Assembly: GCA_965231015.1 (NCBI GenBank)
Contig: OZ246408.1
Location: 921,908 to 985,907, forward strand
Reading direction: 5' to 3'
Length of the DNA: 64,000 nucleotides
From: an uncultured Gammaproteobacteria bacterium
Lineage (GTDB): Bacteria > Patescibacteriota > Patescibacteriia > UBA9934 > CAZDDW01
The position numbers were made by a program, and so were the translations under genes. The notes under the pieces were generated by a model. It made no database searches and was not told where the DNA came from. It worked only from the letters and a program-made list of their open reading frames with translations. Shown here piece by piece: positions 29,393 to 48,158 of this stretch. Positions within the stretch are counted from its first letter, which is position 1; each line of letters begins with the position of its first letter.

Positions 29393-30214
29393 CTACAACG
29401 GACTCGCGATATTGCGGACCGCCGGATTGGTCACATGCGTGTAAACTTGCGTCGTCCTGATATTCTGATGCCCGAGCAAAGCCTGCACATACCGCACATC
29501 AACGCCGTTCTCAAGCAGATGAGTAGCGAAAGAATGCCGGAGCGAATGAAACGTGGCCGGTTTTTTTATATCCGCGTGATTAAGCGCGTGCTCAAATATT
29601 TTCTGGGCCGTTCTTTTGGTAAGCTTGCCGCCGCGCTGGCTTTCGAACACCAGCGCGTCGCTGTCCCTGCCAAGACAAAGCACTCGGAGCGGTTCAACGA
29701 GCGAATCCGGCAACACACTGATCCGGTCCTTTTTGCCTTTGCCCTGCCTCACGAATACGGTTTTGCCCTCAAGATCGAGATCTTGAACGCGCACAGCCAC
29801 CGCTTCGCTGACGCGCAGACCGGCGGCGTAAGCGAGGCCAATTAAAGTCCGGTGCTTGAGGTTACGGATCGTCCCGAGCAGGCGCAAAATCTCATCGCGA
29901 GTGAGCGTACTCGGCAAACGCTTAGGCCGTTTAGCGTACGGCAATTTCAGGTCAAACGACCTCCCGAGCAAGTTACGCGCGTAAAACATAATCGCCTGCA
30001 AATGCAGATTAATGGTCGAAGCCGCCGCATCGCCATCATGCTTGGCCAGTAAAAACGACCCGAGCTCGTCATGGTCAACGCGATTCGGATCCGGATATTC
30101 CAAAAAAAATGCTTTTAGCGATCCCAGGTACGACTTTCTGGTCGCCGGACTGTAGTTTTTGAGCTTCAGAAAACGATCAGTCGCCTCCAGAGCCTCGGAG
30201 GTTGAAACAAACAT
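29393..30214 (-). CDS. tyrosine site-specific recombinase (Xer-like; candidate integrase of adjacent cassette array). ORF opens at 30349 but MFVSTSE start at 30214 is more plausible
   Basis: R-H-R-Y catalytic set: GLRVSEA (box I), HSLRHSFATHLL (box II), LGHQNIRTTQVYTHV; only about 90 aa between boxes so no IntI-specific insert. Confidence 0.8.
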   Translation of the reverse strand: MFVSTSEALEATDRFLKLKNYSPATRKSYLGSLKAFFLEYPDPNRVDHDELGSFLLAKHDGDAAASTINLHLQAIMFYARNLLGRSFDLKLPYAKRPKRLPSTLTRDEILRLLGTIRNLKHRTLIGLAYAAGLRVSEAVAVRVQDLDLEGKTVFVRQGKGKKDRISVLPDSLVEPLRVLCLGRDSDALVFESQRGGKLTKRTAQKIFEHALNHADIKKPATFHSLRHSFATHLLENGVDVRYVQALLGHQNIRTTQVYTHVTNPAVRNIASPL

Positions 30215-30240
30215 AAGATTATGCTTAAATAAACAAAAAT

Positions 30241-30260
30241 CTCCCCTCGATTGTGGGGAG
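30241..30260. promoter_or_regulatory. hairpin ctcccctcgattgtggggag immediately upstream of recombinase start; candidate operator/attI-proximal element
   Basis: perfect 6-bp stem 27 nt upstream of the ATG on minus strand. Confidence 0.25.
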
Positions 30261-30382
30261 TCTAAATTTAAGGTAACATAAGTTTGTGCTTTTGTAAAGG
30301 GGTTGTACCTCACAAATATCCCCAAGCCGCATAATCTACAGCATCCCATCCTTTATCCGAACTTTACTTCACATATAAACGA

Positions 30383-30421
30383 GTTGTGGCGAAATCGCTT
30401 CGCTCCTTCGCCACAACGGCC
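30383..30421 (+). repeat. 37-nt hairpin module gttgtggcgaaatcgcttcgctccttcgccacaac (copy 1)
   Basis: identical copy at 33059..33097; starts with GTTGTGG core. Confidence 0.7.
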
Positions 30422-30546
30422 GGCGGCTACGCCTTTTGTTGCGCTCGTCGCTACGCGACATCGCACAACAGTCAGCTATGCGGACATGGCCCGTCGACGA
30501 GCAAGCTCGTCTCCGGACCACGTCGCATAGCCGCCGGCCGTTATAT
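30411..30546 (+). repeat. attC-like site A (R'' CCACAAC, 15-bp arms ggccggcggctacgc/gcatagccgccggcc, R' GTTATAT then GAAAT)
   Basis: imperfect inverted repeat with AAC...GTT boundary cores seen directly. Confidence 0.6.
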
Positions 30547-30580
30547 GAAATAAATTTTTAAAAATTAACTCCGTAAAATT

Positions 30581-30937
30581 ATGAAACCACAAATTAAAGC
30601 GATATACATGTCCGTTAAGGATATGCAAAGAGCAGTAAAATTCTATGAGGAAATTTTTGATGTTAAAGTCTCTTCTTCTGATGAGAGGATGAGCTCTTTC
30701 GACTTTGAAAATATTTCCTTCCTTTTGTTTGATCCAAGTGCTGATGGTGAAGAGGCTTCAATTGGCAATAACGTTGTCCCAAATATTGAGGTGGAAGATG
30801 TTAATAAAATGTTAGATTTGATAAAACAGAAAGGTTGTGAGATTGTTATGCCATTGGAAGAAATCGATAAGTATTTGATTTTTCAAACAAAAGATACGGA
30901 AGGAAATATCATAGAATTTTACCAGATAGGCCGTTAA
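30581..30937 (+). CDS. VOC family protein (glyoxalase/bleomycin-resistance/dioxygenase fold), cassette 1
   Basis: 118 aa, betaalphabetabetabeta module pattern; MKPQIKAIYMSVKDMQRAVKFYEEIFDV. Confidence 0.7.
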   Translation: MKPQIKAIYMSVKDMQRAVKFYEEIFDVKVSSSDERMSSFDFENISFLLFDPSADGEEASIGNNVVPNIEVEDVNKMLDLIKQKGCEIVMPLEEIDKYLIFQTKDTEGNIIEFYQIGR

Positions 30938-30955
30938 TTTTTAAAAATTTACATC

Positions 30956-31100
30956 ACATAACAGCGTGTATCTGGTTCGGCAGATTTGACGCAATTAGAT
31001 TCAAAAGGAATGTCAAATCAGCCTCTCCCAAATTTCGCAAAAAACTATTAGATTTTCAAAGGAGTTTTTGCGAAACTTCAGATACACGCGGACGTTGTGG
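30956..31100 (+). repeat. attC-like site B (R'' ACATAAC, arms agcgtgtatctg/cagatacacgcg, R' GTTGTGG then CGAAAT)
   Basis: 12-bp near-perfect inverted arms immediately inside AAC/GTT cores. Confidence 0.65.
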
Positions 31101-31134
31101 CGAAATAATGAAAAATTCTTTTGCCCTATTGGGC

Positions 31135-31164
31135 AAATTTAATCGGGGCAATTTTTATTCATTT
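31135..31164. repeat. left copy of perfect 30-bp inverted repeat atttaatcggggcaatttttattcattttt
   Basis: reverse complement present at 32338..32367; brackets the ANT-like gene. Confidence 0.85.
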
Positions 31165-31173
31165 TTAACGCAT

Positions 31174-32349
31174 ATGAAGGGCATTAAAAAATACACACAC
31201 GAAGAAAGAGAAGCGGTTCTTTATGAAATGGTTCCGCTTATTAAGCGCAAGTTTGGAAAAAATCTTTTGGCTATTGCCGCGCGCGGATCATTTGCACGAA
31301 ACACAGATTTGCCATATTCCGATTTAGAGCTTTTTGCTTTCTTGAAAGAAATGCCACGCGGCCAGAAAAAACTTCCTTACGCAAAAATGCATAAAATCAG
31401 AAATGGCCTTTCTGTAGAGCTTATCTGGATTACTGAAAAAACATACATTAACGAAGTTAAAGAAGTTAACGGATCTTGGTTTGGTGTTGGCTCGGAAAAG
31501 CTCTTGCCTGTCTACGGTAAAAAATTCATTGACAAATTGAACCGACACAAGCCAAAGAATGTAAAACAAAAAGCTCTGGAACAAGCGGCGGCATTATGGC
31601 CGGGCATTTTCTTTTCAAGCTCTGCTGTTATAAAGATCGCGGAACAAAAAGATCATGAAAAGGTCGCCCTTGCCATGTATCACATGTTTGAAAACATTTT
31701 GAATTTTTTAGCATTTATCAACCAATCGCCATATTCAAGTAGCTCGCAAAAGATTATTGAATCCAAAAAATTCAAAATTAAGCCAAAAGATTTTTCAAAA
31801 CTACAACAACTGATACTTCATGGGGATTTTCGAAAATATACCGAGATTCAAAAATTAACAGCAAGCGTTGTTAAGGATCTAAAGGCATATCTCCAAAATG
31901 CAGGCTTTGAACCAAGCGAAGATCTTGTTAGTAAAAAACGACCCGACCAATTTGGTATGAAAGATAAAACGACTCGTTACGAGCAGGCCGTGGAGATATG
32001 GGAAAAGGTCCAAGAATCCACGACCAAAACCCTTAATGCCGCTGAAACAAAAAACAAAGAAGGTATGGCGACCGTTATTAATGACATGTTTTTTCAGTAT
32101 CTAAAAATTCTGTCCTGCCTGAATACAAAAACCTTAAGATTTTCACAAATCATCACCGACGCGAAAAAATTGAAATACAAACCGGCAGGATTCTCCAAGC
32201 TGATTAGAATTATCGAGAATGGAGAATACGGCCAATTTGTTGAGATCAAAAAAGTTGTCATGAGCGTTTTTGCTGGACTCGAGAGCAAACTTGAAAAGTT
32301 AGGATATGAATTCTATCAAGATAATGTAGATCCGAATAAAAATGAATAA
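31174..32349 (+). CDS. aminoglycoside 4'-nucleotidyltransferase-like (ANT(4')/KNTase family) with tandemly duplicated C-terminal helical domain, cassette 2 (ORF opens 31108)
   Basis: EEREAVLYEMVPLIKRKFGKNLLAIAARGSFARNTDLPYSDLELFAFL closely parallels KNTase REERMKIVHEIKERILDKYGDDVKAIGVYGSLGRQTDGPYSDIEMMCVM; residues about 185-300 and 305-413 are paralogous. Confidence 0.75.
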   Translation: MKGIKKYTHEEREAVLYEMVPLIKRKFGKNLLAIAARGSFARNTDLPYSDLELFAFLKEMPRGQKKLPYAKMHKIRNGLSVELIWITEKTYINEVKEVNGSWFGVGSEKLLPVYGKKFIDKLNRHKPKNVKQKALEQAAALWPGIFFSSSAVIKIAEQKDHEKVALAMYHMFENILNFLAFINQSPYSSSSQKIIESKKFKIKPKDFSKLQQLILHGDFRKYTEIQKLTASVVKDLKAYLQNAGFEPSEDLVSKKRPDQFGMKDKTTRYEQAVEIWEKVQESTTKTLNAAETKNKEGMATVINDMFFQYLKILSCLNTKTLRFSQIITDAKKLKYKPAGFSKLIRIIENGEYGQFVEIKKVVMSVFAGLESKLEKLGYEFYQDNVDPNKNE

Positions 32350-32367
32350 AAATTGCCCCGATTAAAT
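32338..32367. repeat. right copy of perfect 30-bp inverted repeat (overlaps ANT-like stop codon)
   Basis: aaaaatgaataaaaattgccccgattaaat = reverse complement of 31135..31164. Confidence 0.85.
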
Positions 32368-32403
32368 AATTCGCTATCGCGAATTAAGAATTTTCATTAC
32401 ATC

Positions 32404-32490
32404 GTACAACAGCGTGTATGAGACTACGGCTTTTTACAAAAGCCTCCGCCCAAATTGCTACGCAACTTCGCATACACGCGAACGTTAACT
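32404..32490 (+). repeat. attC-like site C (R'' GTACAAC, arms agcgtgtatg/catacacgcg, R' GTTAACT then GAAAT)
   Basis: seen directly; 87 bp. Confidence 0.65.
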
Positions 32491-32720
32491 GAAATTTGCC
32501 TTAATTACTTTCATAAATAACGTATGCATTTACTCAAAAAAATAATATCACCCATACTGTACGTAGCTTTTCTCGCCCCTGTCTTCATAGGCACTATTGC
32601 CGTTATTGCATTTTAGAATTTACTATTGGTCTGTCGAGTTTTATTCTAACAGGACTCCCAGAAGTATTTATCTCATTTATTGCAATAGGCGGTTTATTAT
32701 TTTGGTTAGCCAACAAACTA

Positions 32721-32945
32721 ATGACGGGACTCGAAAATCTACTCAAACCAAATATACTCGATCACCTTCGTCAATCATCTTTGTACTATTATACAGTAGT
32801 TTACGCATTAATTGCGCTAATACGGTCTGGCTATCACGGCGGTCTCGGAGAAGCATACATGCTAATTGGATTGGCAACTTCAGTATGGGCGATTATTGTT
32901 AATGCAATTTTTTTGTATAAACGACGTAAGGCAAACATCAGCTAA
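32721..32945 (+). CDS. small 2-TM membrane protein, cassette 3 (possible frameshifted longer form from 32524)
   Basis: 74-aa ORF; upstream frames encode MHLLKKIISPILYVAFLAPVFIGTIAVIAF and ...EFTIGLSSFILTGLPEVFISFIAIGGLLFWLANKL which join with a 1-nt shift near a tttt run at 32611. Confidence 0.4.
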   Translation: MTGLENLLKPNILDHLRQSSLYYYTVVYALIALIRSGYHGGLGEAYMLIGLATSVWAIIVNAIFLYKRRKANIS

Positions 32946-33065
32946 CACTGCGTATGCGGTTACGGCTTGCTCCGTGCCTCCGCAAGCCTCCACCCATATT
33001 TGCCACTGCTACCGCTTCGCGATATTATAGCAGTGGCAAACATCGCCTATTCACGGACGTTGTGG
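32940..33065 (+). repeat. attC-like site D (R'' AGCTAAC overlapping stop codon, internal stems ccactgcta/tagcagtgg and ggcttgc/gcaagcc, R' GTTGTGG then CGAAAT) followed by hairpin module copy 2 (33059..33097)
   Basis: seen directly. Confidence 0.55.
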
Positions 33066-33152
33066 CGAAATCGCTTCGCTCCTTCGCCACAACGGCCAAT
33101 AAATTCTTTTTATTTATAATTTGGGGGAGTTTTATTCTCGCTTCGTAAAAAT

Positions 33153-33674
33153 ATGTCAAAATCACTGAATATAAAATTTGAAAAAGCTGTGCGAATTTTG
33201 TCGGAATATATGCCACCGTCTGATGAAAATAGCAAAAAGCCTGTGATGTTTCACGACATACGCGTTGGCGTGTATTTATATGAAAATGGTTATTCAGAAG
33301 ATGTTGTTTTGGCTGGCATTTTGCACGATACGATTGAATGGTCTGGTGCTAACGAACAATTATTGAGAGATGAATTCGGCGACAATGTTGTCCGCTTGAT
33401 TTTTGCAAGCACCAAAGATGATACGATTGTAGACAAGGTGGAAAAAACAAACGAACTGATCCAAAGGTGTGTGCAAAACGGGCAAGAAGCTCTTATTGTA
33501 AAAACCGCTGATATTATTGATAGCTTCAAGTGGTATGCCAGCCAAAACAACGAGGACGAACTGAAAAACCATTGTGTAAAGAACGCCAACGCTATTTTCA
33601 AATTTAAACCGGAAGATTTTGACGATAAAATATTTGATGAGCTTAAAATCTGGCAAGAAAGATTTGCGGTATAA
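33153..33674 (+). CDS. HD-domain metal-dependent phosphohydrolase, cassette 4
   Basis: H...HD...D motif: FHDIRVG and GILHDTIEW; 173 aa. Confidence 0.7.
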   Translation: MSKSLNIKFEKAVRILSEYMPPSDENSKKPVMFHDIRVGVYLYENGYSEDVVLAGILHDTIEWSGANEQLLRDEFGDNVVRLIFASTKDDTIVDKVEKTNELIQRCVQNGQEALIVKTADIIDSFKWYASQNNEDELKNHCVKNANAIFKFKPEDFDDKIFDELKIWQERFAV

Positions 33675-33729
33675 AACCGAATAAAACTTCCCCAAATACA
33701 TTAAGGAAGGAAGAATTTATTGGCACATC

Positions 33730-33819
33730 GGACAACACGGCATATCCGGTTCAAGAATTTTTGTTCCTCCGCCAGCCAGCGGATACACAAAAACTTCGGA
33801 TGATGCCGATACGTTAGGC
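33730..33819 (+). repeat. attC-like site E (R'' GGACAAC, arms acggcatatccg/cggatgatgccg, R' GTTAGGC)
   Basis: seen directly; 90 bp. Confidence 0.6.
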
Positions 33820-33846
33820 GCAATATCATTTTAATCAATTTTCCTT

Positions 33847-34443
33847 ATGGCAGACACAATTCTACTAAACAACGAAGCTTATCATATTAGCGAGGACGAC
33901 CTTCCTTGCCTCATTCATTATGCACCGAAAGCTGGCGGGTCTCATTTCTCAGTAGCAATGGTCGCTGATTTGTTTTTGCGTGGCTCAAAAATTTTGTTTC
34001 TTACAGCATATCCAATGGCCAAGGATAATTTTTTACAACAGATTAAAGGAGAAGAATCAAAAACTGCTTTTATCACTAATGCGAGTCAGCTTAACACTGA
34101 TGCACAAGCAATTATTCTGGAAAGTGGCAACGAAAAGCTATTTCTGCAAGCGGTTGAAAAGCTGGATGATCTAAACGAGCGTGTCGTGCTTGTAAAAAAT
34201 ATAGAAGTGTTCAGCGACGCAGTTTTTGAATCTTGTTTGAAACTGCAAAAAATTATCCTTTCCGGCAACTTAGACGAGTGCTCAATGAAAAAACAAATCA
34301 GCGAGAAGCAATATAAAACGACTGTAGTTTTCAGCAAGTCAGAAACTCCATTAAAAGTCGAGCCACCAGAGCTGGAAAAATACAAAGGTTATCTTTGGAG
34401 CGACGGCAAGGAAGGTCTAGTATCAGTTCAAATGGAAAATTGA
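33847..34443 (+). CDS. hypothetical protein, cassette 5
   Basis: 198-aa ORF beginning 28 nt after R' core. Confidence 0.5.
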   Translation: MADTILLNNEAYHISEDDLPCLIHYAPKAGGSHFSVAMVADLFLRGSKILFLTAYPMAKDNFLQQIKGEESKTAFITNASQLNTDAQAIILESGNEKLFLQAVEKLDDLNERVVLVKNIEVFSDAVFESCLKLQKIILSGNLDECSMKKQISEKQYKTTVVFSKSETPLKVEPPELEKYKGYLWSDGKEGLVSVQMEN

Positions 34444-34503
34444 TTAAAATGATACTCTTCGCCCGCCCTTCGGGACGTTGCACTCGGGCTCGACCTGCGG
34501 CGC

Positions 34504-34620
34504 GCCTAACACAGAATATGCGGTTTCACTCCCGTTGGTCGCTACACCCATATTTGCCAGAGGTCGCCCTTCGGGCATATTATACCGCTGTCAAACATCG
34601 CATACTGCGGAACGTTAGGC
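34504..34620 (+). repeat. attC-like site F (R'' GCCTAAC and R' GTTAGGC perfectly complementary; arms cagaatatgcg/cgcatactgcgg; then GAAAT); possible extra degenerate core GTTGCAC at 34477
   Basis: seen directly; 117 bp. Confidence 0.7.
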
Positions 34621-34671
34621 GAAATAATTTTCGGGGGCTACGTAAGATAACTTTTATTTACTTTAAACAAT

Positions 34672-35319
34672 ATGTCCAAAGTAATGAATCCAAAAATCAA
34701 AATCAAAGAAACTGCACTTCTTGTTATTGATGTCACTAACGCATGGGCTCATCCAACTTGCGAGATTAAAAAGTGGGATGTTACATTTGGGAAAATCCGC
34801 AAAATGGTCCCAAAACTCCAGAAATTCATTAAAGATTATCAATCAGTAGGTGGTAATGTTATTTACATAAAAAGCACACCTTGGGATAAGAAACATTTAG
34901 CCAAAAATCTTATTGAGTTTTACAAAGATCCTGCGGTTTGTTTTTATTCAAGAAATATTTATTCAGACAAAGTCAGAAAGTTTTCAGATGAATTTTACAA
35001 AATAAGTCCTGAAAAAAATGATGTTGTTCTTGAAAAAAACAGTTATGATGCTTTTGTTAATCCACAACTCAATAAGATTTTGAAAAAGAAGAAAATTAAG
35101 TATCTTATCCCGACCGGAGTTTTGGGAGATGGTTGTGTACACGCAACAATTCAGGGCGGATTTTCCCAAGGATATAATTATCTCATTCTAAAAGATTTAG
35201 TTGAAACAACAGATTTACCAATCAGACAAAGATTGATAAAAATGATGAGAGAATTCTATTGGCCCATGCTTTATGGAAAAACTATCAATGCTAAAAGTTT
35301 CTTTGATTTTGTGGAGTAG
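34672..35319 (+). CDS. isochorismatase-family cysteine hydrolase, cassette 6
   Basis: ALLVIDVTNAW (catalytic Asp region) and LIPTGVLGDGCVHATIQGG (catalytic Cys). Confidence 0.75.
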   Translation: MSKVMNPKIKIKETALLVIDVTNAWAHPTCEIKKWDVTFGKIRKMVPKLQKFIKDYQSVGGNVIYIKSTPWDKKHLAKNLIEFYKDPAVCFYSRNIYSDKVRKFSDEFYKISPEKNDVVLEKNSYDAFVNPQLNKILKKKKIKYLIPTGVLGDGCVHATIQGGFSQGYNYLILKDLVETTDLPIRQRLIKMMREFYWPMLYGKTINAKSFFDFVE

Positions 35320-35390
35320 AACGCCCCCGAAAATTACTTGCTCACTTCGTTCGCACCCCGCTGCGCTCTCCTCCCGTTGGTCGTCGGATC

Positions 35391-35455
35391 ACTTAACAAG
35401 GATTATGAGGAAAATGGCTCGGCTCGGCATTTTCCTCATAATCCTGACGTTAGGA
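35391..35455 (+). repeat. attC-like site G1 (R'' ACTTAAC, perfect 18-19-bp arms aaggattatgaggaaaatg/cattttcctcataatcct, R' GTTAGGA)
   Basis: seen directly; 65 bp. Confidence 0.7.
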
Positions 35456-35529
35456 CGCCATCGCGAGCTACGCTCGCTCTCGTCGTCCGCCGGTGGCGGC
35501 CACTTCGCATCAGTCGCAGCCCGTTATGT
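35456..35529 (+). repeat. GC-rich palindromic repeat G2 ending GTTATGT GAAATAA (same end-class as site A)
   Basis: last 30 nt align with 30517..30553 (tcgcatNagNcgcNgcc GTTATRTGAAATAA). Confidence 0.55.
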
Positions 35530-35866
35530 GAAATAACTAAAAATATATTACTTATAATTAAACATAACGATATGCCAAATCTAATGGACATATGTGAGTC
35601 TTTAGCTCAAGAAGGAAGACTTGCACAAAACTACGTATAATTTCAAAAAACCGTAAAGGATAAAGGAGGTAAGGCCAAGTTTGGAGAATTATCAAAGCTA
35701 TCTGAAAAACAAATGGAAATTTTACTCGATCTTATTAAAGAAGGAAATTGGCCCAACCAGAAAGGTTAGGTCAGCTGTTTACCAGCCGACAATTGCGACC
35801 ACAACTTGGGAATCTAATCACAAAGATTCCCTTTTTTTATTTCTAAAAAAATTGTATAATGGCCTT

Positions 35867-36403
35867 ATGAAATGGAAAAAACTAAGCTCTAAAATAGTTT
35901 ATAAAAACCCTTGGTTACAGCTAAGGGAAGATACAGTAATTCGCCCTGACGGCAAAAAAGGGAAATATGGTATTGTTGAACGGCCGCCTGTAAATTTTAT
36001 CATCGCTTTAGACAAGGGGGGATCAATTTTTTTTATTAAAGAATACAGATATCCAATAAAAAAAACTATCTTACAGCTACCAGCTGGCACCACGGATAAA
36101 AATAAAAGTGCTCTAACTTCCGCCAAACAAGAACTTTTTGAAGAATCAGGATTAAAGGCTAAAAATTGGAAAAAGATTGGTAAGTTTTATATCGGCCCGG
36201 GACACGAAAGTATTTACGCCAATGTATTTCTAGCAACGGAACTAATTTTAGTAAAAAATAAATTGGATCGGCCGGGAGATGAGTTAATATTTAAAGTCAT
36301 AAAGTTGCCTATTGTAAAAATCAAACAATTAATAAAGTCTGATAAAATTGAATGTGGTATAACGCTGGCCGCTTTAAATTTATATTTTTCAAAAAATAAA
36401 TAA
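35867..36403 (+). CDS. NUDIX hydrolase (ADP-ribose pyrophosphatase-like); ORF opens at TTG 35681 preceded by strong SD aaaggaggt
   Basis: Nudix box TSAKQELFEESGL; typical N-terminus MKWKKLSSKIVYKNPWLQLREDTV; TTGTATAAT extended -10 at 35854. Confidence 0.7.
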   Translation: MKWKKLSSKIVYKNPWLQLREDTVIRPDGKKGKYGIVERPPVNFIIALDKGGSIFFIKEYRYPIKKTILQLPAGTTDKNKSALTSAKQELFEESGLKAKNWKKIGKFYIGPGHESIYANVFLATELILVKNKLDRPGDELIFKVIKLPIVKIKQLIKSDKIECGITLAALNLYFSKNK

Positions 36404-36423
36404 TAAATATAAGTAAATAAAAA

Positions 36424-36465
36424 AGAGGGATCAAAATTATCATATTCTGGTCCCTCGTATTTTTT
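36424..36465. terminator. bidirectional terminator between NUDIX and radical SAM genes
   Basis: agagggatca...tggtccctc hairpin with aaaaa before and gtatttttt after. Confidence 0.6.
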
Positions 36466-37939
36466 AACCAGCCTCGAAACAAAATGGCTGGTCAGATGGC
36501 TCAATACCAATCTGATAGTCGTCAGCCAACTTCTCCAATAATGCATTCAAGGAAATCTGACCGGGCATACAGAATTTACAGTGGATGCCTAGCTCTTTAC
36601 CGGCAGCACTCCGCATAATGTCGGAAAAATTACAACCATCGCTGATTTGGCCAAGAACGTATTCTCGTGGTGACTTAGAGCGAGTATACGGCTCTCCAAT
36701 GGAATCGCAGGCTCCCACAATACCGAAAGGATCAATTGCCGGTCTTATTACTGGAATTAAGCAACGCTTTGGTTGCGTCAATTCCATCTCTCCCCATTTG
36801 TCCATCGCAATCAGGAGATCATCGGCAAATGACACACTGAAACCCAGCTGACCATTTTCGATTTGAGAACGCAATTCACGCAAACTTTCAAGCATTTCCT
36901 CATATTGATAACTTGAAAGTTCTCTGGTTACACCGATACAGTCCACCCTCACATCAAGGAAATCAATTTCAAGATCGGAACAAAGTTTCGCCACACCGGC
37001 TACTTCTGCATAGTTTAACTCCTGTAAAACTATACCTATCCCAACCTTCAACCTTTCACCTCGTTGCTTTTTGAGAGCCACGATTTTTCTTATCCCGTTC
37101 AGCACGGCTTCCAAATCATTGGCTCCCAAGGAGCGATTGATAAGTCTTGAATAAATCTCTGGTGTCGCCGCATGTATACTGATTCTCAACCAAGTAGAAC
37201 TTAAGACGGAATCTAGTAACTCTTGATTTAAGCCACAAAGCGTCCGGCCATTGGTGTAAATCATGGTTTCAAGACCAATGGAGTTAGCCTTGTCTAGAAC
37301 CGGCTTGATCTTGGCTTGCGACAGCAAGGTTTCACCACCACCAGAGAATATAATCTGCCTGGTGCCTAAACCTTTTACCTCCTCCAAAATCTTGCACCAT
37401 TGATCTGGCGTGAGCAAGCGCTCTGCCCCATAAAAGTCAGCGACAGGATTTCTTTGCTTTTGGCCACCACACCAAATGCACATCTGACACCTATAAATGC
37501 AAATGGCGTCAGTGGGATGAATTTCCAGCATCATGGGTCCTACTATTTCTCCCCGCAGGATTTTAGGCAAATATTGAGAATTTTGCCGCATGAAACCCAG
37601 TAGGTTCGTGGCAGATTTGATTAGCAAAGATCTTGGATACTGATTGCTCAGAAATACCGCCTTTGCTAGTTTTGACTCCCGCATAAAACGATGTGTAGAC
37701 AACAACTCGTCTCTCGAAATTTCCTTGTGACGCAAGATTGATTTTGCTTTACGCGCTGGGTCAAAGAAATATTCAACCAAGACAGAAAAAGTCAAGCCAA
37801 ACGATTTGTCATTTAAAACAGTCTCTACACCCATAAATAACTCATAGGCTTGACCTTCGGCTTCGTCAAGGTTGATAAGACCATCGTGAAAACGATGCAT
37901 TATATCAACCAACTTTGCAACAGCACTGTTCTCTAACAT
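36464..37939 (-). CDS. radical SAM protein with about 130-aa N-terminal extension; function unknown
   Basis: Cx3Cx2C (CIYRCQMC), GGE-type motif FSGGGETLL, C-terminal Cys pairs (HCKFC). Confidence 0.8.
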   Translation of the reverse strand: MLENSAVAKLVDIMHRFHDGLINLDEAEGQAYELFMGVETVLNDKSFGLTFSVLVEYFFDPARKAKSILRHKEISRDELLSTHRFMRESKLAKAVFLSNQYPRSLLIKSATNLLGFMRQNSQYLPKILRGEIVGPMMLEIHPTDAICIYRCQMCIWCGGQKQRNPVADFYGAERLLTPDQWCKILEEVKGLGTRQIIFSGGGETLLSQAKIKPVLDKANSIGLETMIYTNGRTLCGLNQELLDSVLSSTWLRISIHAATPEIYSRLINRSLGANDLEAVLNGIRKIVALKKQRGERLKVGIGIVLQELNYAEVAGVAKLCSDLEIDFLDVRVDCIGVTRELSSYQYEEMLESLRELRSQIENGQLGFSVSFADDLLIAMDKWGEMELTQPKRCLIPVIRPAIDPFGIVGACDSIGEPYTRSKSPREYVLGQISDGCNFSDIMRSAAGKELGIHCKFCMPGQISLNALLEKLADDYQIGIEPSDQPFCFEAG

Positions 37940-38192
37940 GATCTCATCTCCTTTATCGAGGTTAGTTGTTTTTTAAGGAACATAAGACTAATTTAGTCGT
38001 TAAAACAACATATCATAGCACGAATGATCAATCAAGGATTTAAATAATAATTTGTACTAATTTTGTAATTATTACAAAAAATATAATACTATTAAATACA
38101 AGGAGTCTTGGCTTTTGCGCATTCACCCCCACCCCTCTGCCCCTACGCCAAGACGAAAAAAAATTTGTTAATTTAGGACGCCATCGCGAGCT

Positions 38193-38221
38193 TCCTCCTT
38201 CGCTAAAGCTTCGGAGGACAG
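38193..38221. repeat. 29-nt hairpin repeat tcctccttcgctaaagcttcggaggacag (copy 1, inserted into a G2-like repeat)
   Basis: identical copy at 44972..45000; flanking sequence taggacgccatcgcgagc identical to 35452..35469. Confidence 0.75.
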
Positions 38222-38258
38222 TCCGCTCGCTCTCGGCGCGATGCATCGAGAAACAAAA

Positions 38259-43392: not shown

Positions 43393-44878
<1,486 letters not shown>

Positions 44879-44971: not shown

Positions 44972-45000
44972 TCCTCCTTCGCTAAAGCTTCGGAGGACAG
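44972..45000. repeat. 29-nt hairpin repeat copy 2 in 16S downstream spacer
   Basis: identical to 38193..38221. Confidence 0.75.
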
Positions 45001-45325
45001 GCAAAGACCGCCATTTGACGGTCTTTTTGATTTAACTTTTCGAATTTTTATGTATTGTCGGTAATGTTCGAGCTCTGATTCATTGCGAATATTACGGTCG
45101 TGGAAATTTCGTTGCCAAATTTTGATACCTGGTATCTCGAACCTGACAATACGCGTCACAGAAGATTTGAATGATTGAATAATTTGGCCAAGTGATGGTT
45201 GTTTCTGAACCGAATTGATGTTGTTTCGATATTTATTATTTCTAAACACAAAACTCCGCCAAAGGCAGGGCTATCAAATTTTCTTTGCCGGCCCAAAGAA
45301 AACCGGACCATATTTAAAACGAAAA

Positions 45326-45354
45326 GCGGGGGCAGATGGTGTGTCTGCCCCCGC
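45326..45354 (-). terminator. rho-independent terminator of 815-aa ORF
   Basis: gcgggggcaga...tctgcccccgc; on minus strand followed by ttttcgtttt. Confidence 0.5.
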
Positions 45355-45372
45355 ACGTTGCGTAGATAGGTC

Positions 45373-47820
45373 TCAGGTTTTCGCCGGACCTGAGTTACTG
45401 GAAGGATCATTGTCGTCGTCGGCCGAGTTGCCGCGACGCTTGGACGTGGACTCCGAACCGAGTGAACTCGACTCCTCGATCGAGCCGGAGTCGCCGTAGA
45501 CCGGCAACTCTTGAGCTTCAGTACCGTACTCGGGCATCCCCTCAGTCGTAGCCGCGGCCATGCTGGCCGAGTCATCAGGCTCGTCTTCGTCCGGATCAAC
45601 CAAGGATTGTTCCGAGGTATCCGGCTCGCCTTCGAGCTCGATGCTGCCGTCCGGATCGTGATACGACTCCTCGTCCGAGGGAACAAGCGCGATGCGTTGT
45701 TCCTGACTCGGCGTGCCAAGCGTAGTGTCCTCCCTCACACTGCCCTCGTCGATCTCCTCGGCCACGTCCGTGATGGGCGGTGGCGTGGGATCGACCATGA
45801 CCGGTGCCTCGACCTCTCGGTGCGAAAGCCCGGAGATGTCACGGGTTGGTGGAGGGGTGTCGACCGCTTCGTCCACAGTATCGAGATGAATCGGTGGAGC
45901 CGAATCTCCGACACTCGACTCGTCGTCTTCGTCCTCCGGACACCGACTCGGTCGCTCCTCGGTGGTATCACCCTCGAGTTCCGACTCCGGTTCAATTCCC
46001 GGTTCCGGAATTGGAATGCCGTCCTCGATCGCCTGCAGGCTGGCCGAAAGCGGTATCTCGGGCAGCTTTCCCCTGAAGCGAGGATGCTGCGGCGGCTTGG
46101 CCTCCGGGTCAGACGCATCAACGGTCTGCTCGGAAGGGAGATCCGAAGTGGTGAGCATCTTGAACTCATCAGACTCCGCCTCGTCTCCCTCACCTCCGGA
46201 CGGATCCGAGCTACTGCTCGAATCCGACTCATCAAACGACGAGGGCATGCTCATCATGGCAATCTCCTCGTCGGAGTTGGGCGGACCGTCATCCCGGAAG
46301 GCCTCTCCCTCTTCGTACTCGTCCAGTTCCCCAGCCGGAATGGCCGGTGGTGGAGCGGGTAGTTGCACGAGGGTGAAGTTGATCTTGGTAAGATCAAACT
46401 CTCGGGAGGTGATCTCGGCCTCGATCCTCATCATGGCTTCAACCATAGCCTCGCACAAGTCGATACTGCGGTTGATCGCGATCTTCTGAGCATCTGTGAA
46501 GAAGTCAAACACCTCACTGGCTTCGCCCTGCGGCAGAGCCAGATACACGGCCATGGCCGCGTTATCGAGGCATGCCAACTCTTCGAACTGACGCCGCGAG
46601 GTCGCGGTCGTGGTGCGACCCACGTGCTCGATGATGTCTGCGTGAGGCTGACGTACCGTAGCATGGTACAGGTGGAAGGCATAACGCGCGAACTCGTCGA
46701 GCTCGGAGCATTGACTGTCGGTGAGGGTCTGCTCCGGACTCTGCCGGCCAAGGATGCGCACGATGTCCGCCGGACGGATCATACGCAGATCCATCTGCCG
46801 GGCCACCCGAGCAAACACGTCCGGGTTGTGCTGGTACACGCGGCGCAGGAACTCCACGAGCTCCGGCGCCGAGTAGAACTCGAACGTCCAGACGAGCAGG
46901 CGTACCCACGTATTCAGGAGACGTGGTGGCAGCTCCTGGGGAGACCAGAACGGTTCACCCTGGGAGATGTACATGGCCGTACGGATAGTATCCGACCAAG
47001 GCACGTGCACAGCTGTCACAGCCGGCCGGATTCCGAGAGCCGGATCGATCCCGATCTCGGCCATCACCTGACGGTAGGCGTGATCGACCCCCATGAGGTC
47101 GTACCCCTGGGTAGCAAACACGAAACCGTTTAGATCCCCTTCCTGGTGCAAGAACGGGCTCACCGCCTTGAAGGGCTGGTGTAACTCTGCGGCCTGCAGG
47201 AACGAGACCCGCGTTTCTTCACTCGGTGCAGCGAGCGCCGTGAAATGGCGGGTCATCTCCGGGGATTGGATCCGGGCGAGCGTCAGCACAGCGTCGTCTT
47301 CCGTGTACACCCCAGTGCCGAACCGTCCCGTTGCAGCGTACCCGGGCAATTCCCGCTCGGTCATGATCTCCCGAATCCAGCCGGTCATTTGCCGGTTGAA
47401 CTCCTCGGGCTTCAGCGCCCCGGTCGACTGATCGATCGACATCATGGCGATGTACTCCAGCAGCTGACCAATGGCCGCCTCCTGAAGCTGCATGATGCTA
47501 GCGATCTCGCGGGCCTCGCGCCGGCGGTTCGTATCACGAATCAGCTGGGCTCGCAGGAAGCGCATGCGCTTGGCCTGCTCACCAATGAGGTTGCGATAGA
47601 AGTCCGGGAGTTCGATTCCCTGCTGCTCGGCCAGTCGGTACACCAGATCCGAGAACTCGTGATCCGGATCCCCGGCCGGGCGGTGCGCGATGATGCGCGG
47701 GTCGATAAGCGGTCGGGCACCGTTGATGACCCCGAGCTCCTTGAGGGCCTCGACGAGGTCATCGCCGAGGTAGTGCCGATATACGGCTTCCACTTCTTCG
47801 TTTCTGTCCTGCTCCAACAT
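45373..47820 (-). CDS. hypothetical 815-aa protein in about 63% GC island; folded N-terminal about 500 aa plus about 320-aa acidic S/D/E/P-rich disordered C-terminus
   Basis: single long minus-strand ORF spanning the island with its own terminator; plus-strand ORFs are Arg/Leu-rich antisense artefacts. Confidence 0.6.
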   Translation of the reverse strand: MLEQDRNEEVEAVYRHYLGDDLVEALKELGVINGARPLIDPRIIAHRPAGDPDHEFSDLVYRLAEQQGIELPDFYRNLIGEQAKRMRFLRAQLIRDTNRRREAREIASIMQLQEAAIGQLLEYIAMMSIDQSTGALKPEEFNRQMTGWIREIMTERELPGYAATGRFGTGVYTEDDAVLTLARIQSPEMTRHFTALAAPSEETRVSFLQAAELHQPFKAVSPFLHQEGDLNGFVFATQGYDLMGVDHAYRQVMAEIGIDPALGIRPAVTAVHVPWSDTIRTAMYISQGEPFWSPQELPPRLLNTWVRLLVWTFEFYSAPELVEFLRRVYQHNPDVFARVARQMDLRMIRPADIVRILGRQSPEQTLTDSQCSELDEFARYAFHLYHATVRQPHADIIEHVGRTTTATSRRQFEELACLDNAAMAVYLALPQGEASEVFDFFTDAQKIAINRSIDLCEAMVEAMMRIEAEITSREFDLTKINFTLVQLPAPPPAIPAGELDEYEEGEAFRDDGPPNSDEEIAMMSMPSSFDESDSSSSSDPSGGEGDEAESDEFKMLTTSDLPSEQTVDASDPEAKPPQHPRFRGKLPEIPLSASLQAIEDGIPIPEPGIEPESELEGDTTEERPSRCPEDEDDESSVGDSAPPIHLDTVDEAVDTPPPTRDISGLSHREVEAPVMVDPTPPPITDVAEEIDEGSVREDTTLGTPSQEQRIALVPSDEESYHDPDGSIELEGEPDTSEQSLVDPDEDEPDDSASMAAATTEGMPEYGTEAQELPVYGDSGSIEESSSLGSESTSKRRGNSADDDNDPSSNSGPAKT

Positions 47821-47924
47821 TGTGCCTTTCCCCCTGGCTGTTGCATGGTTGAAAATTCAGTTTTAAAAGAAGTTCGACCGCTCTCCGAGGAGGGCGGTCG
47901 TTGAGAGTTGTTGTGGCCGGCTAG

Positions 47925-48158
47925 TTAGCTGGCCAAGGCGACGACCTGCTCGGCCTCGCGACACAGCGCGGCGGGGAGCATGCCCCTGATGCGCCGAGCG
48001 CTAGACGTGAGCGTTGTCGCTCGGGTGTGCGTTCCAGAGAACGCGGCCCGTCCGATGTCACCACCGGCCGGGATCACCGTCACGACAGTTCCGTCGCTCT
48101 GGCGGATCTGCTTGGGGGCATACTTGCCCACACGCGGCTTGATGGTGGCGTCCATCGG
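47925..48158 (-). CDS. small hypothetical protein in high-GC island (start at MDATIKPR with GGAGAGGAGAG RBS)
   Basis: ORF 47925..48206; RBS upstream of internal Met. Confidence 0.4.
   Translation of the reverse strand, partial: PMDATIKPRVGKYAPKQIRQSDGTVVTVIPAGGDIGRAAFSGTHTRATTLTSSARRIRGMLPAALCREAEQVVALAS

Follow-up and report, generated by a model that had tools for sequence, protein, structure and literature searches.

A probable integron-like cassette platform on a Patescibacteria chromosome with a Xer-like recombinase lacking the IntI insertion

Introduction

Can a tyrosine recombinase without the additional domain of integron integrases (IntI) run an array of gene cassettes bounded by attC-like hairpins? 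This question is raised by a 64-kb stretch of a chromosome of Patescibacteria, the candidate phyla radiation (CPR); the whole stretch is hereafter called the window. It carries a gene for a Xer-like tyrosine recombinase and, divergent from it, a series of short units, most of which contain a single open reading frame (ORF) followed by a palindrome. The original prediction, made from the sequence alone, left two answers: a non-canonical Xer-type enzyme working on attC-like hairpins, or a cluster of attC sites lacking an integron integrase (CALIN) beside an unrelated Xer gene.

According to the current view, IntI gained the use of folded attC sites when a Xer-like ancestor acquired the I2 helix, and no intermediates are known (PMC7790495). 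Archaeal integron integrases carry the insertion (PMC9668308), and the IntegronFinder 2 survey leaves CPR unmentioned. The passages on the 'Cand' subgroup of simple tyrosine recombinases in Smyshlyaev et al. 2021 (PMC8138268) describe it as Xer-related, specific to candidate phyla, and a proposed substitute for Xer; it is almost certainly the same protein family as the recombinase of the window. We failed to find in the literature, within a search whose scope did not extend to most subscription journals, any account of CPR cassette arrays or of a cognate site of 'Cand' enzymes. Our analysis indicates that the locus is probably an integron-like cassette platform on the CPR chromosome, with a Xer-like recombinase without the I2 insertion as its integrase.

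Recombinase Gene and Absence of the IntI Insertion

The recombinase gene encodes a protein of 273 aa. A longer frame of the same ORF (start at 30349, 318 aa) is the version in the public record P0001; the shorter one, starting at 30214, was adopted because all homologues start at the position of the second ATG. A Phage_integrase domain (Pfam, 3.8e-46) and an N-terminal SAM-like domain were identified, both boxes (GLRVSEA and HSLRHSFATHLL) were found, and the catalytic residues R134, K159/K162, H223, R226, H249, and Y258 were invariant across the family alignment. No second tyrosine recombinase was found within the window.

The arginines of box I and box II are separated by 92 residues in all 21 CPR members compared, including the enzyme of the window. 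The same interval comprises 134 residues in IntI1 and three other true IntIs (P0173, P0219, L079), 95 in Escherichia coli XerC, and 99 in XerD. The insertion of about 42 aa (I2 helix) typical of IntI is absent from the recombinase. This was already claimed in the original prediction, which counted about 90 residues between the boxes of a protein of about 273 aa, and it is borne out by the intervals and by the alignment to VchIntIA (2A3V), where the IntI domain might have surfaced after all: 19 residues of the query (178–196) stand opposite 62 residues of the chain (179–240). Likewise, IntI1 spends 304 aa to cover 258 residues of the query.

Comparison with profile hidden Markov models (HMMs), which the original prediction had proposed, gave the same picture. 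The integron-integrase model TIGR02249 was the best NCBIfam match, with 206.2 bits split between two stretches against a cutoff of 265, whereas true IntIs score 473–509 bits in a single stretch; the score with NF011946 was 141 against a cutoff of 435. The system was not filed as IntI because the enzyme fails both the insertion and the HMM cutoff. The Xer models stayed below their cutoffs as well (XerA_Arch 188.6/220, XerD 169/330, XerC 168/335, XerS 67.5/267). Thus, the enzyme has a Xer build and, as described below, a dif-like site, yet it fails the cutoffs of the Xer models. An AlphaFold model (pLDDT, predicted local distance difference test, 86.9) has no additional helix between box I and box II. 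Its closest solved structures are VchIntIA, then archaeal XerA, then XerH, while the best match in PDB by sequence is XerA. The enzyme is therefore Xer-like in build and in sequence about equally close to IntI and XerA.

That a canonical IntI was missed through mis-annotation or a frameshift is hardly conceivable, even though IntI supplies both the best NCBIfam match and the best structural neighbour and shares the C-terminal ..SPL motif with the family. The ORF is continuous, the 92-residue interval is fixed in 21/21 members, and the confident model lacks the extra helix. In a neighbour-joining tree of 270 columns, which is distance-based, thinly sampled for IntI, and built with XerA, XerS, and XerH sequences left out, the CPR enzymes were monophyletic (100%) and lay outside the IntI clade (100%). 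The IntI sampling is thin because a search for IntI1 homologues gave only relatives at least 74% identical.

Core Site Upstream of the Recombinase Gene

A core site of attI-like and dif-like appearance was found 150–180 nt upstream of the recombinase gene in the window (Table 1). When 260 nt upstream of the gene were compared, the site was retained in about 34 of 40 CPR loci, with AAC-T invariant; across loci, it lies 50–190 nt from the start codon. On the recombinase strand, the core of the family reads TATTTC-NNNN-AAC|TCGTTTnTATGCGAAnT and is laid out as ATTTC-NNNN-AA / CTCGTT / TnTATGCGAAnT. Two arms of 12 bp each, which are inverted copies of an ATTTC...A.A motif, flank a 6-bp centre, as in cognate sites of Xer type (28–30 bp, inverted arms, centre of 6–8 bp). 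The cassette-side arm has the same motif as the R' arms of the attC-like sites. The crossover would occur at G|TT, between 30383 and 30384.

The position of the crossover is indicated by the closest relatives, whose enzymes are 89% and 84% identical to that of the window and which retain the downstream synteny pyrD-trmD-KH-rpsP-smc. In the closer one (locus L081), the stretch of about 170 nt between the ATG and ..CACATATAAACGA|GTT can be aligned with the window, and the similarity ends exactly at the GTT of the core (..AACGA|GTT). The cassettes beyond it differ: L081 has a different nucleotidyltransferase-like cassette and then a three-gene DnaJ/TPR/Mrr unit, each unit ending in the same type of palindrome as in the window. 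In addition, contigs of at least six species begin at the (T)AAC of the core site, and two independent assemblies of the window's organism begin 3 nt past its AAC. A 39-nt repeat within the array (see below) would alone break a k=31 assembly graph in this genome; either way, the contig break is caused by repeats of recombination sites. Taken together, the comparisons support the core site as the probable insertion point of cassettes, adjacent to the gene and with the crossover at G|TT as in attI.

A second direct copy of the integrase-side arm is located about 33 nt from the core, on the gene side, and recurs in the family. By analogy with the direct repeats of attI1, it is a candidate accessory binding site or operator. 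Between these elements and the ATG, there is a hairpin that was scored as terminator-like. Such a leader hairpin recurs in loci L081, L083, L001, and L010 (20–30 nt before the start in L081, L001, and L010), with stem sequences that differ between lineages, and it may insulate the gene from transcription of the array or serve as an attenuator. The original prediction was right that a hairpin exists upstream of the start but mistook its possible role: as a candidate attI it was rejected, since the crossover and the conserved core lie about 120 nt further out. A scan of 30100–30650 for sigma-70 promoters found none, although promoters of CPR may differ.

Cassette Array and Hairpin Sites

From 30384 on, the plus strand is organized as a series of units, each bounded at G|TT. 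The ORFs are mostly one per unit and on the strand opposite to the recombinase; just 3' of the stop codon follows an imperfect palindrome that begins with ...YAAC and ends with GTT-RNNN-GAAAT. The motif GTT-N4-5-GAAAT was found seven times in the 5.1 kb of the array, compared with 4.6 occurrences expected per strand across the whole 64 kb, and the G+C content of the array is 0.38–0.40 against 0.43–0.51 around it. Functions encoded by the cassettes are of the accessory type (glyoxalase, nucleotidyltransferase, isochorismatase). Five of the eight candidate sites in the window fold end to end as single-stranded DNA (ssDNA) far better than shuffled sequences (z from -2.7 to -7.1). Rfam gave no match in the array and hence no attC family.

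Units without an ORF also occur, often as the first in the array and some with loops of the GCGAAGC type. The array often opens with a mini-cassette that has no ORF and whose two arms pair into a perfect hairpin (L009, L023, L027, L035, L041), and the loop of such first mini-cassettes frequently contains a GCGAAGC-type motif. The GCGAAGC sequence forms an unusually stable DNA minihairpin.

An exact direct repeat of 39 nt (GTTGTGGCGAAATCGCTTCGCTCCTTCGCCACAACGGCC) occupies 30383–30421 and 33059–33097. The ORF-less cassette opens with the first copy; the second, fused to the HD-domain cassette, lacks the remainder of the stem, which suggests secondary-site recombination or deletion.

Two ways of finding the sites across loci were of limited use. 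With an anchored palindrome score (AAC...GTT), noise was too high at values under about 9, and only 3 of 7 sites in the window were recovered. A covariance model built from trimmed sites (R1) skipped the long loops through its local ends, found only the short-loop site a7, and was dropped. Sites were characterized by their arm motif and by structure. The motif ATTTC-N4-5-AAC is 3.6–4.5 times denser upstream on the recombinase strand than in three control compartments. Each ATTTC arm has a partner GTT arm 60–170 nt away, with a median duplex energy of -18.4 kcal/mol versus -8.3 kcal/mol at random AAC positions. A detector based on structure only (AAC, 3–5 nt, 11-nt stem with at least 10 pairs, 0–2 nt, GTT, asymmetry of at least 2) was applied to 31 CPR loci. 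On the recombinase strand, it found 55 sites upstream of the gene (211 kb) and 0 downstream (237 kb); on the opposite strand, it found 5 and 5. Sites were detected in 24 of the 31 loci, up to 10 in each.

The stem is maintained by compensatory changes. When 29 in-register sites of 13 loci were aligned, changes on both sides were seen in each of the 11 stem pairs, and double-change cells numbered 89 compared with 21 in shuffles; stem cells were paired in 99% of cases, a share raised by pre-selection of the sites, versus 25–47% when the partner was slid. Conservation extends to the unpaired positions: AAC is followed by GTYY, GTT is preceded by a single T (46 of 49 sites), A(A/T)GTT comes past the 5' stem, and GARCC stands ahead of the 3' stem. 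The consensus on the recombinase strand is 5'-ATTTC-NNNY-AAC-GTYY-[11-bp stem]-A(A/T)GTT...GARCC-[stem]-T-GTT-RNNN-GATGT-3'. The sites are thus imperfect palindromes with AAC and GTT boxes, structural conservation, and one polarity, as expected for the attC type.

Rules of the IntegronFinder type would probably call the locus a CALIN because the enzyme fails the IntI criteria, and the formal definition of a CALIN (at least two attC sites, no IntI nearby) does apply to it. Its biological sense, a decayed attC cluster that lies next to an unrelated Xer gene by coincidence, is contradicted by the systematic linkage to the recombinase and is very improbable. The gene-site-array arrangement, the polarity, and the arm motif recur in 24 of 31 CPR loci of different classes, with 0 sites on the other side, and the homology breakpoint falls at the gene-adjacent core site. 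This recurrence effectively excludes the second branch of the original prediction; its first branch is favoured by the absent insertion, the conserved core, the breakpoint at G|TT, and the polarity of 55 versus 0 sites.

The cassette ends carry a trace of mobility. If cassettes are excised as circles at AA|C, the four variable bases of the GTT arm should complement the ATTTC arm at the far end of their own cassette. This own-end complementarity averaged 2.55 of 4 bases, with 25 of 73 cases perfect, compared with 1.85 of 4 and 6 perfect cases for the arm of the same site; 2,000 permutations gave a mean of 1.53 and a maximum of 1.86. In the ten-site array of a member of Peregrinibacteria (L037), eight cases were perfect and two matched at 3 of 4 positions, including the last site compared with the core site. 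Complementary arm halves at both ends of a cassette are the signature of excision as circles. The units thus look like mobile ones: their own ends reconstitute one site, and the arrays of the window and L081 differ.

Proposed Mechanism

In the mechanism we propose, the cognate duplex core would be formed by the two inverted 12-bp ATTTC-type arms and the 6-bp centre upstream of the enzyme's own gene, and cassettes would enter and leave at its G|TT (AA|C). The palindrome, folded as a single strand, would rebuild a core-site mimic whose central region contains a 3-nt bulge. The paired ATTTC..AAC/GTT..GATGT arms of the hairpin would be the counterpart of the cassette-side arm of the core, and TATGCGAAGT, half of which lies inside the stem, that of the gene-side arm. 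Insertion would then join the attI-like site and a hairpin, and excision two hairpins, both carried out by this enzyme on folded ssDNA. By analogy with integrons and with CTXphi/XerCD, a folded site would undergo one strand exchange with the core or with another folded site, to be resolved by replication. Catalysis by this enzyme, the folded single-stranded substrate, the single exchange, and the mode of cassette expression are all inferred.

Alternatively, the sites may be recombined as ordinary Xer-type duplexes, as in pdif modules of Acinetobacter, and their palindromy may be incidental or serve, for example, transcription termination. As a duplex, each hairpin end does contain the motifs of both arms (ATTTC..AAC and TATGCGAAGT), the domain through which IntI can use folded DNA is missing from the enzyme, and a wobble test of the folding strand gave no strand signal. 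The arm spacing speaks for folding: AAC and GCGAA are 10 nt apart in the core, whereas in the hairpin the distance is 12 nt as a duplex and, when folded, 12 nt and 9 nt on the two sides, so that folding with a 3-nt bulge restores the spacing where the duplex is 2 bp too long. The 11-bp stem shows strong compensatory covariation while its sequence is otherwise free, the asymmetry of 4 nt (GTYY) versus 1 nt (T in 46/49 sites) is conserved, and minihairpin loops of the GCGAAGC type occur in ORF-less cassettes. We therefore regard a duplex mechanism as quite unlikely.

Several points weigh against an integron-like platform. To our knowledge, no mechanism is known by which an enzyme without the I2 helix could recognize extrahelical bases or select the strand, and the wobble test showed no strand preference (G.T 10, A.C 9). 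In the window, the stems of a4 and a6 are degenerate and give no end-to-end fold, and 35449–35529 folds no better than shuffles; elsewhere, several loci hold a single cassette. Only sites with at least 8 of 11 pairs had been admitted to the covariation alignment, a pre-selection that raises the paired percentage and leaves the double changes and covariation unaffected. The comparison sequences are mostly metagenome-assembled genomes. The phylogeny, proposed in the original prediction, separated the CPR clade from IntI but gave less than 50% support to a sister relation between them. Finally, the family is ubiquitous and 50–60% identical across CPR classes, which suits a housekeeping enzyme.

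Distribution of the Recombinase Family

More than 7,700 proteins match the recombinase at E <1e-20. The top matches are all about 270 aa long and end with ..SPL, and those that are named are recombinases of Patescibacteria. A scan of one genome per species gave 53 CPR loci, in which each genome appeared once, among them loci of Saccharibacteria, Peregrinibacteria, Uhrbacteria, Dojkabacteria, WWE3, and Magasanikbacteria. Anomalous recombinase ORFs were found in L049, L050, and L057, which comprise two loci of Peribacteria and one of Kuenenbacteria. In the former two, the ORF is broken under translation table 11, probably owing to an alternative genetic code; in the latter, 270 residues are matched over 934 nt, which points to a frameshift or insertion.

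The CPR-wide, highly conserved occurrence of the enzyme, once per genome among the 53 loci, raises the explanation that it is the dimer resolvase of CPR, that the core is its dif site, as with XerS/difSL, and that the cassettes are parasites piling up at dif like integrative mobile elements exploiting Xer (IMEXs). This agrees with the dif-like architecture of the core, with an XerA-type HMM score nearly equal to the IntI score, and with the Xer-related, substitute status given to 'Cand' recombinases in the passages of PMC8138268 that treat them. It agrees less well with the scores below the curated cutoffs for XerA, XerC, and XerD, and with the finding that nearly every locus with enough upstream DNA holds at least one highly stereotyped hairpin cassette. 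In 14 of 18 loci, GC skew does not change sign between the two flanks, so that most loci do not lie at a skew switch, although such short flanks (5–10 kb) are noisy; the skew in the window is ambiguous. A purely housekeeping role thus appears rather unlikely, but it is not mutually exclusive with an integron-like platform, and the same enzyme and core may also serve chromosome-dimer resolution. A dif site, by which the original prediction hoped to recognize a housekeeping XerD, does not make a clean test here: the attI-like core is itself dif-like in architecture, so both roles may coexist.

Insertion-less relatives with 36–42% identity were found outside CPR in Ignavibacteriota (L054, L067), Bacteroidota (L052), and Paenibacillus antibioticophila (L063). 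Their box I-box II intervals are 93–95 aa, and their TIGR02249 scores are 184–251 against the cutoff of 265. These recombinases adjoin arrays of hairpin sites with the same 4-nt versus 1-nt geometry, which in all four loci lie downstream of the gene. Boxes of canonical appearance (GCCTAAC/GTTAGGC) and, at the gene end, an attI-like junction CAATGACGGCTAAC|TCTTGTAATGACGCA are present in the arrays of L054, L052, and L067. Because these four relatives adjoin such arrays, cassette arrays with an insertion-less recombinase may reach beyond CPR.

Comparison with Known Systems

The platform resembles integrons, especially sedentary chromosomal ones, in many respects. An array made up mostly of single-ORF cassettes diverges from the recombinase gene, and the crossover lies at the G|TT of a duplex site proximal to the gene. 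Every cassette terminates in an imperfect palindrome, in which AAC...GTT boxes are combined with a variable loop and a spacer that is unpaired and asymmetric. A cassette starts with bases complementary to its own R'', ORF-less cassettes occur, the functions are accessory, and the content varies between close relatives. Unlike integrons, the CPR system has an enzyme that scores below the IntI HMM cutoff and lacks the insertion of about 42 aa regarded as necessary for attC recombination. Its hairpin has a 3-nt bulge (GTYY versus T) rather than the two single extrahelical bases of integron attC, its arms are longer (12 nt, ATTTC..AAC), and the family is vertically conserved throughout CPR.

The use of a folded hairpin by an enzyme without I2 has a precedent: XerCD recombines the folded single-stranded hairpin of CTXphi, whose unpaired centre limits the reaction to one strand exchange (PMC7790495). 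As in CTXphi and the single-stranded IMEXs at dif, a folded hairpin with an unpaired centre would mimic a duplex dif-like site, and the elements accumulate in tandem. Unlike CTXphi, the CPR elements are promoterless-looking one-gene cassettes and not phages, one recombinase replaces XerC and XerD, and the site adjoins the recombinase gene, with no evidence for a location at the terminus.

With the single-Xer systems (XerS/difSL, XerH/difH, archaeal XerA/dif), the CPR system shares one enzyme and a site of about 30 bp with inverted arms and a 6-bp centre. Le Bourgeois and co-workers reportedly placed the XerS site, in 2007, immediately upstream of the xerS gene. In contrast to these systems, the CPR enzyme falls below the XerA, XerS, XerC, and XerD cutoffs, a hairpin cassette array is attached, and GC skew mostly has no switch at the locus. 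The pdif modules of Acinetobacter are discrete modules of genes that lie between Xer-type sites and presumably move by Xer recombination (PMC7399989). The pdif sites differ in being plain 28-bp duplexes of alternating orientation on plasmids, with no covarying hairpins, gene-adjacent core, or fixed polarity. Finally, the cognate site and the cassette array found here add to the account of the 'Cand' subgroup, as neither is reported in the passages of PMC8138268 on that subgroup.

What we describe is a widespread natural I2-less enzyme systematically coupled to attC-like hairpin cassettes and a dif-like core. Should this coupling prove functional, how integrons arose could be tested directly with a small enzyme of 273 aa and short defined sites; rules that recognize integrons by the insertion would miss a whole class of systems, and some CALINs would need reinterpreting; and in CPR, which account for a large part of bacterial diversity, gene flux in the reduced genomes would proceed partly via a cassette platform. 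The system could also give a compact structure-specific recombination tool. Tentatively, and as a generalization somewhat more apt to fail than to hold, we propose that integron-type capture needs no I2 domain and that a large, ancient family of I2-less Xer-like enzymes, which is spread throughout CPR and has relatives in Ignavibacteriota, Bacteroidota, and at least one Paenibacillus, uses a dif-like core site to operate hairpin-bounded arrays. Such a family would represent either an intermediate or ancestral state between Xer/dif and IntI/attC or a convergent integron, and many 'CALINs' would be complete systems with an unrecognised integrase.

Other Features of the Window

Coordinates of the features are given in Table 1.

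Table 1. Features of the recombinase locus in the window and of related arrays outside CPR.
Feature	Coordinates	Strand	Basis or remarks
Tyrosine recombinase gene, 273 aa, Xer-like length, without IntI I2 insertion; CPR-wide family	29393..30214	-	ORF, HMMs, alignment, model
Terminator-like hairpin CTCCCC-N8-GGGGAG, then T run	30241..30260	-	27 nt upstream of ATG
Second direct copy of integrase-side arm	30323..30339		- strand GTAGATTATGCGGCTTG; family consensus TTGTATATTATGCGAAnT
attI-like/dif-like core: ACTTCACATATA (30366-77) / AACGAG (30378-83) / TTGTGGCGAAAT (30384-95)	30366..30395		Conservation, breakpoint
ORF-less cassette: R' arm, 13-nt body (GCTTCGC; GCGAAGC on the other strand), R'' arm, long perfect-stem hairpin a1	30384..30540	+	
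Site a1	30411-30546		ssDNA fold z = -5.0
Cassette: glyoxalase/bleomycin-resistance family ORF 30581-30937	30541..31094	+	Site a2 (30956-31100, z = -5.3)
Cassette: KNTase-like nucleotidyltransferase ORF 31108-32349	31095..32484	+	Site a3 (32404-32490, z = -2.7)
Cassette: 74-aa ORF 32721-32945, no Pfam match	32485..33059	+	Weaker site a4 (32940-33065, z = -3.5)
Cassette: HD-domain ORF 33153-33674	33060..33813	+	Site a5 (33730-33819, z = -3.75)
Cassette: 198-aa ORF 33847-34443, family unassigned	33814..34614	+	Degenerate-stem site a6 (34504-34620, z = -0.6)
Cassette: isochorismatase-family ORF 34672-35319	34615..35449	+	Site a7 (35391-35455, 18-bp stem, z = -7.1)
Degenerate ORF-less unit ending GTTATGTGAAAT, no recognisable R''	35450..35529	+	
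Uncertain distal segment: NUDIX 35867-36403 (+), radical-SAM 36464-37939 (-)	35530..38250		
Non-CPR arrays	L054:10900-18200; L052:8400-10500; L067:12400-14200; L063:12500-19200		Gene inverted relative to array

At the distal end of the array, a 20-nt exact repeat (35450–35469 and 38173–38192) brackets the degenerate site and the NUDIX and radical-SAM genes. A hairpin element, AAGGAGTCTTGGC..GCCAAGAC (38105–38160), is also present at the distal array end of L081 (336–280).

Away from the array, an island of about 3 kb (45000–48000) with 54–62% G+C in a 43% genome is located directly 3' of the 16S rRNA gene (43394–44878). It holds an 815-aa ORF (45373–47820, minus strand) without a Pfam match, and no Rfam match, 23S rRNA included, was found in it. 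Beside tRNA-Phe, the segment 48322–48380 (minus strand) gave a weak tRNA-like Rfam match (30.3 bits, just over the gathering score); it was not called by ARAGORN and may be a truncated or degenerate tRNA.

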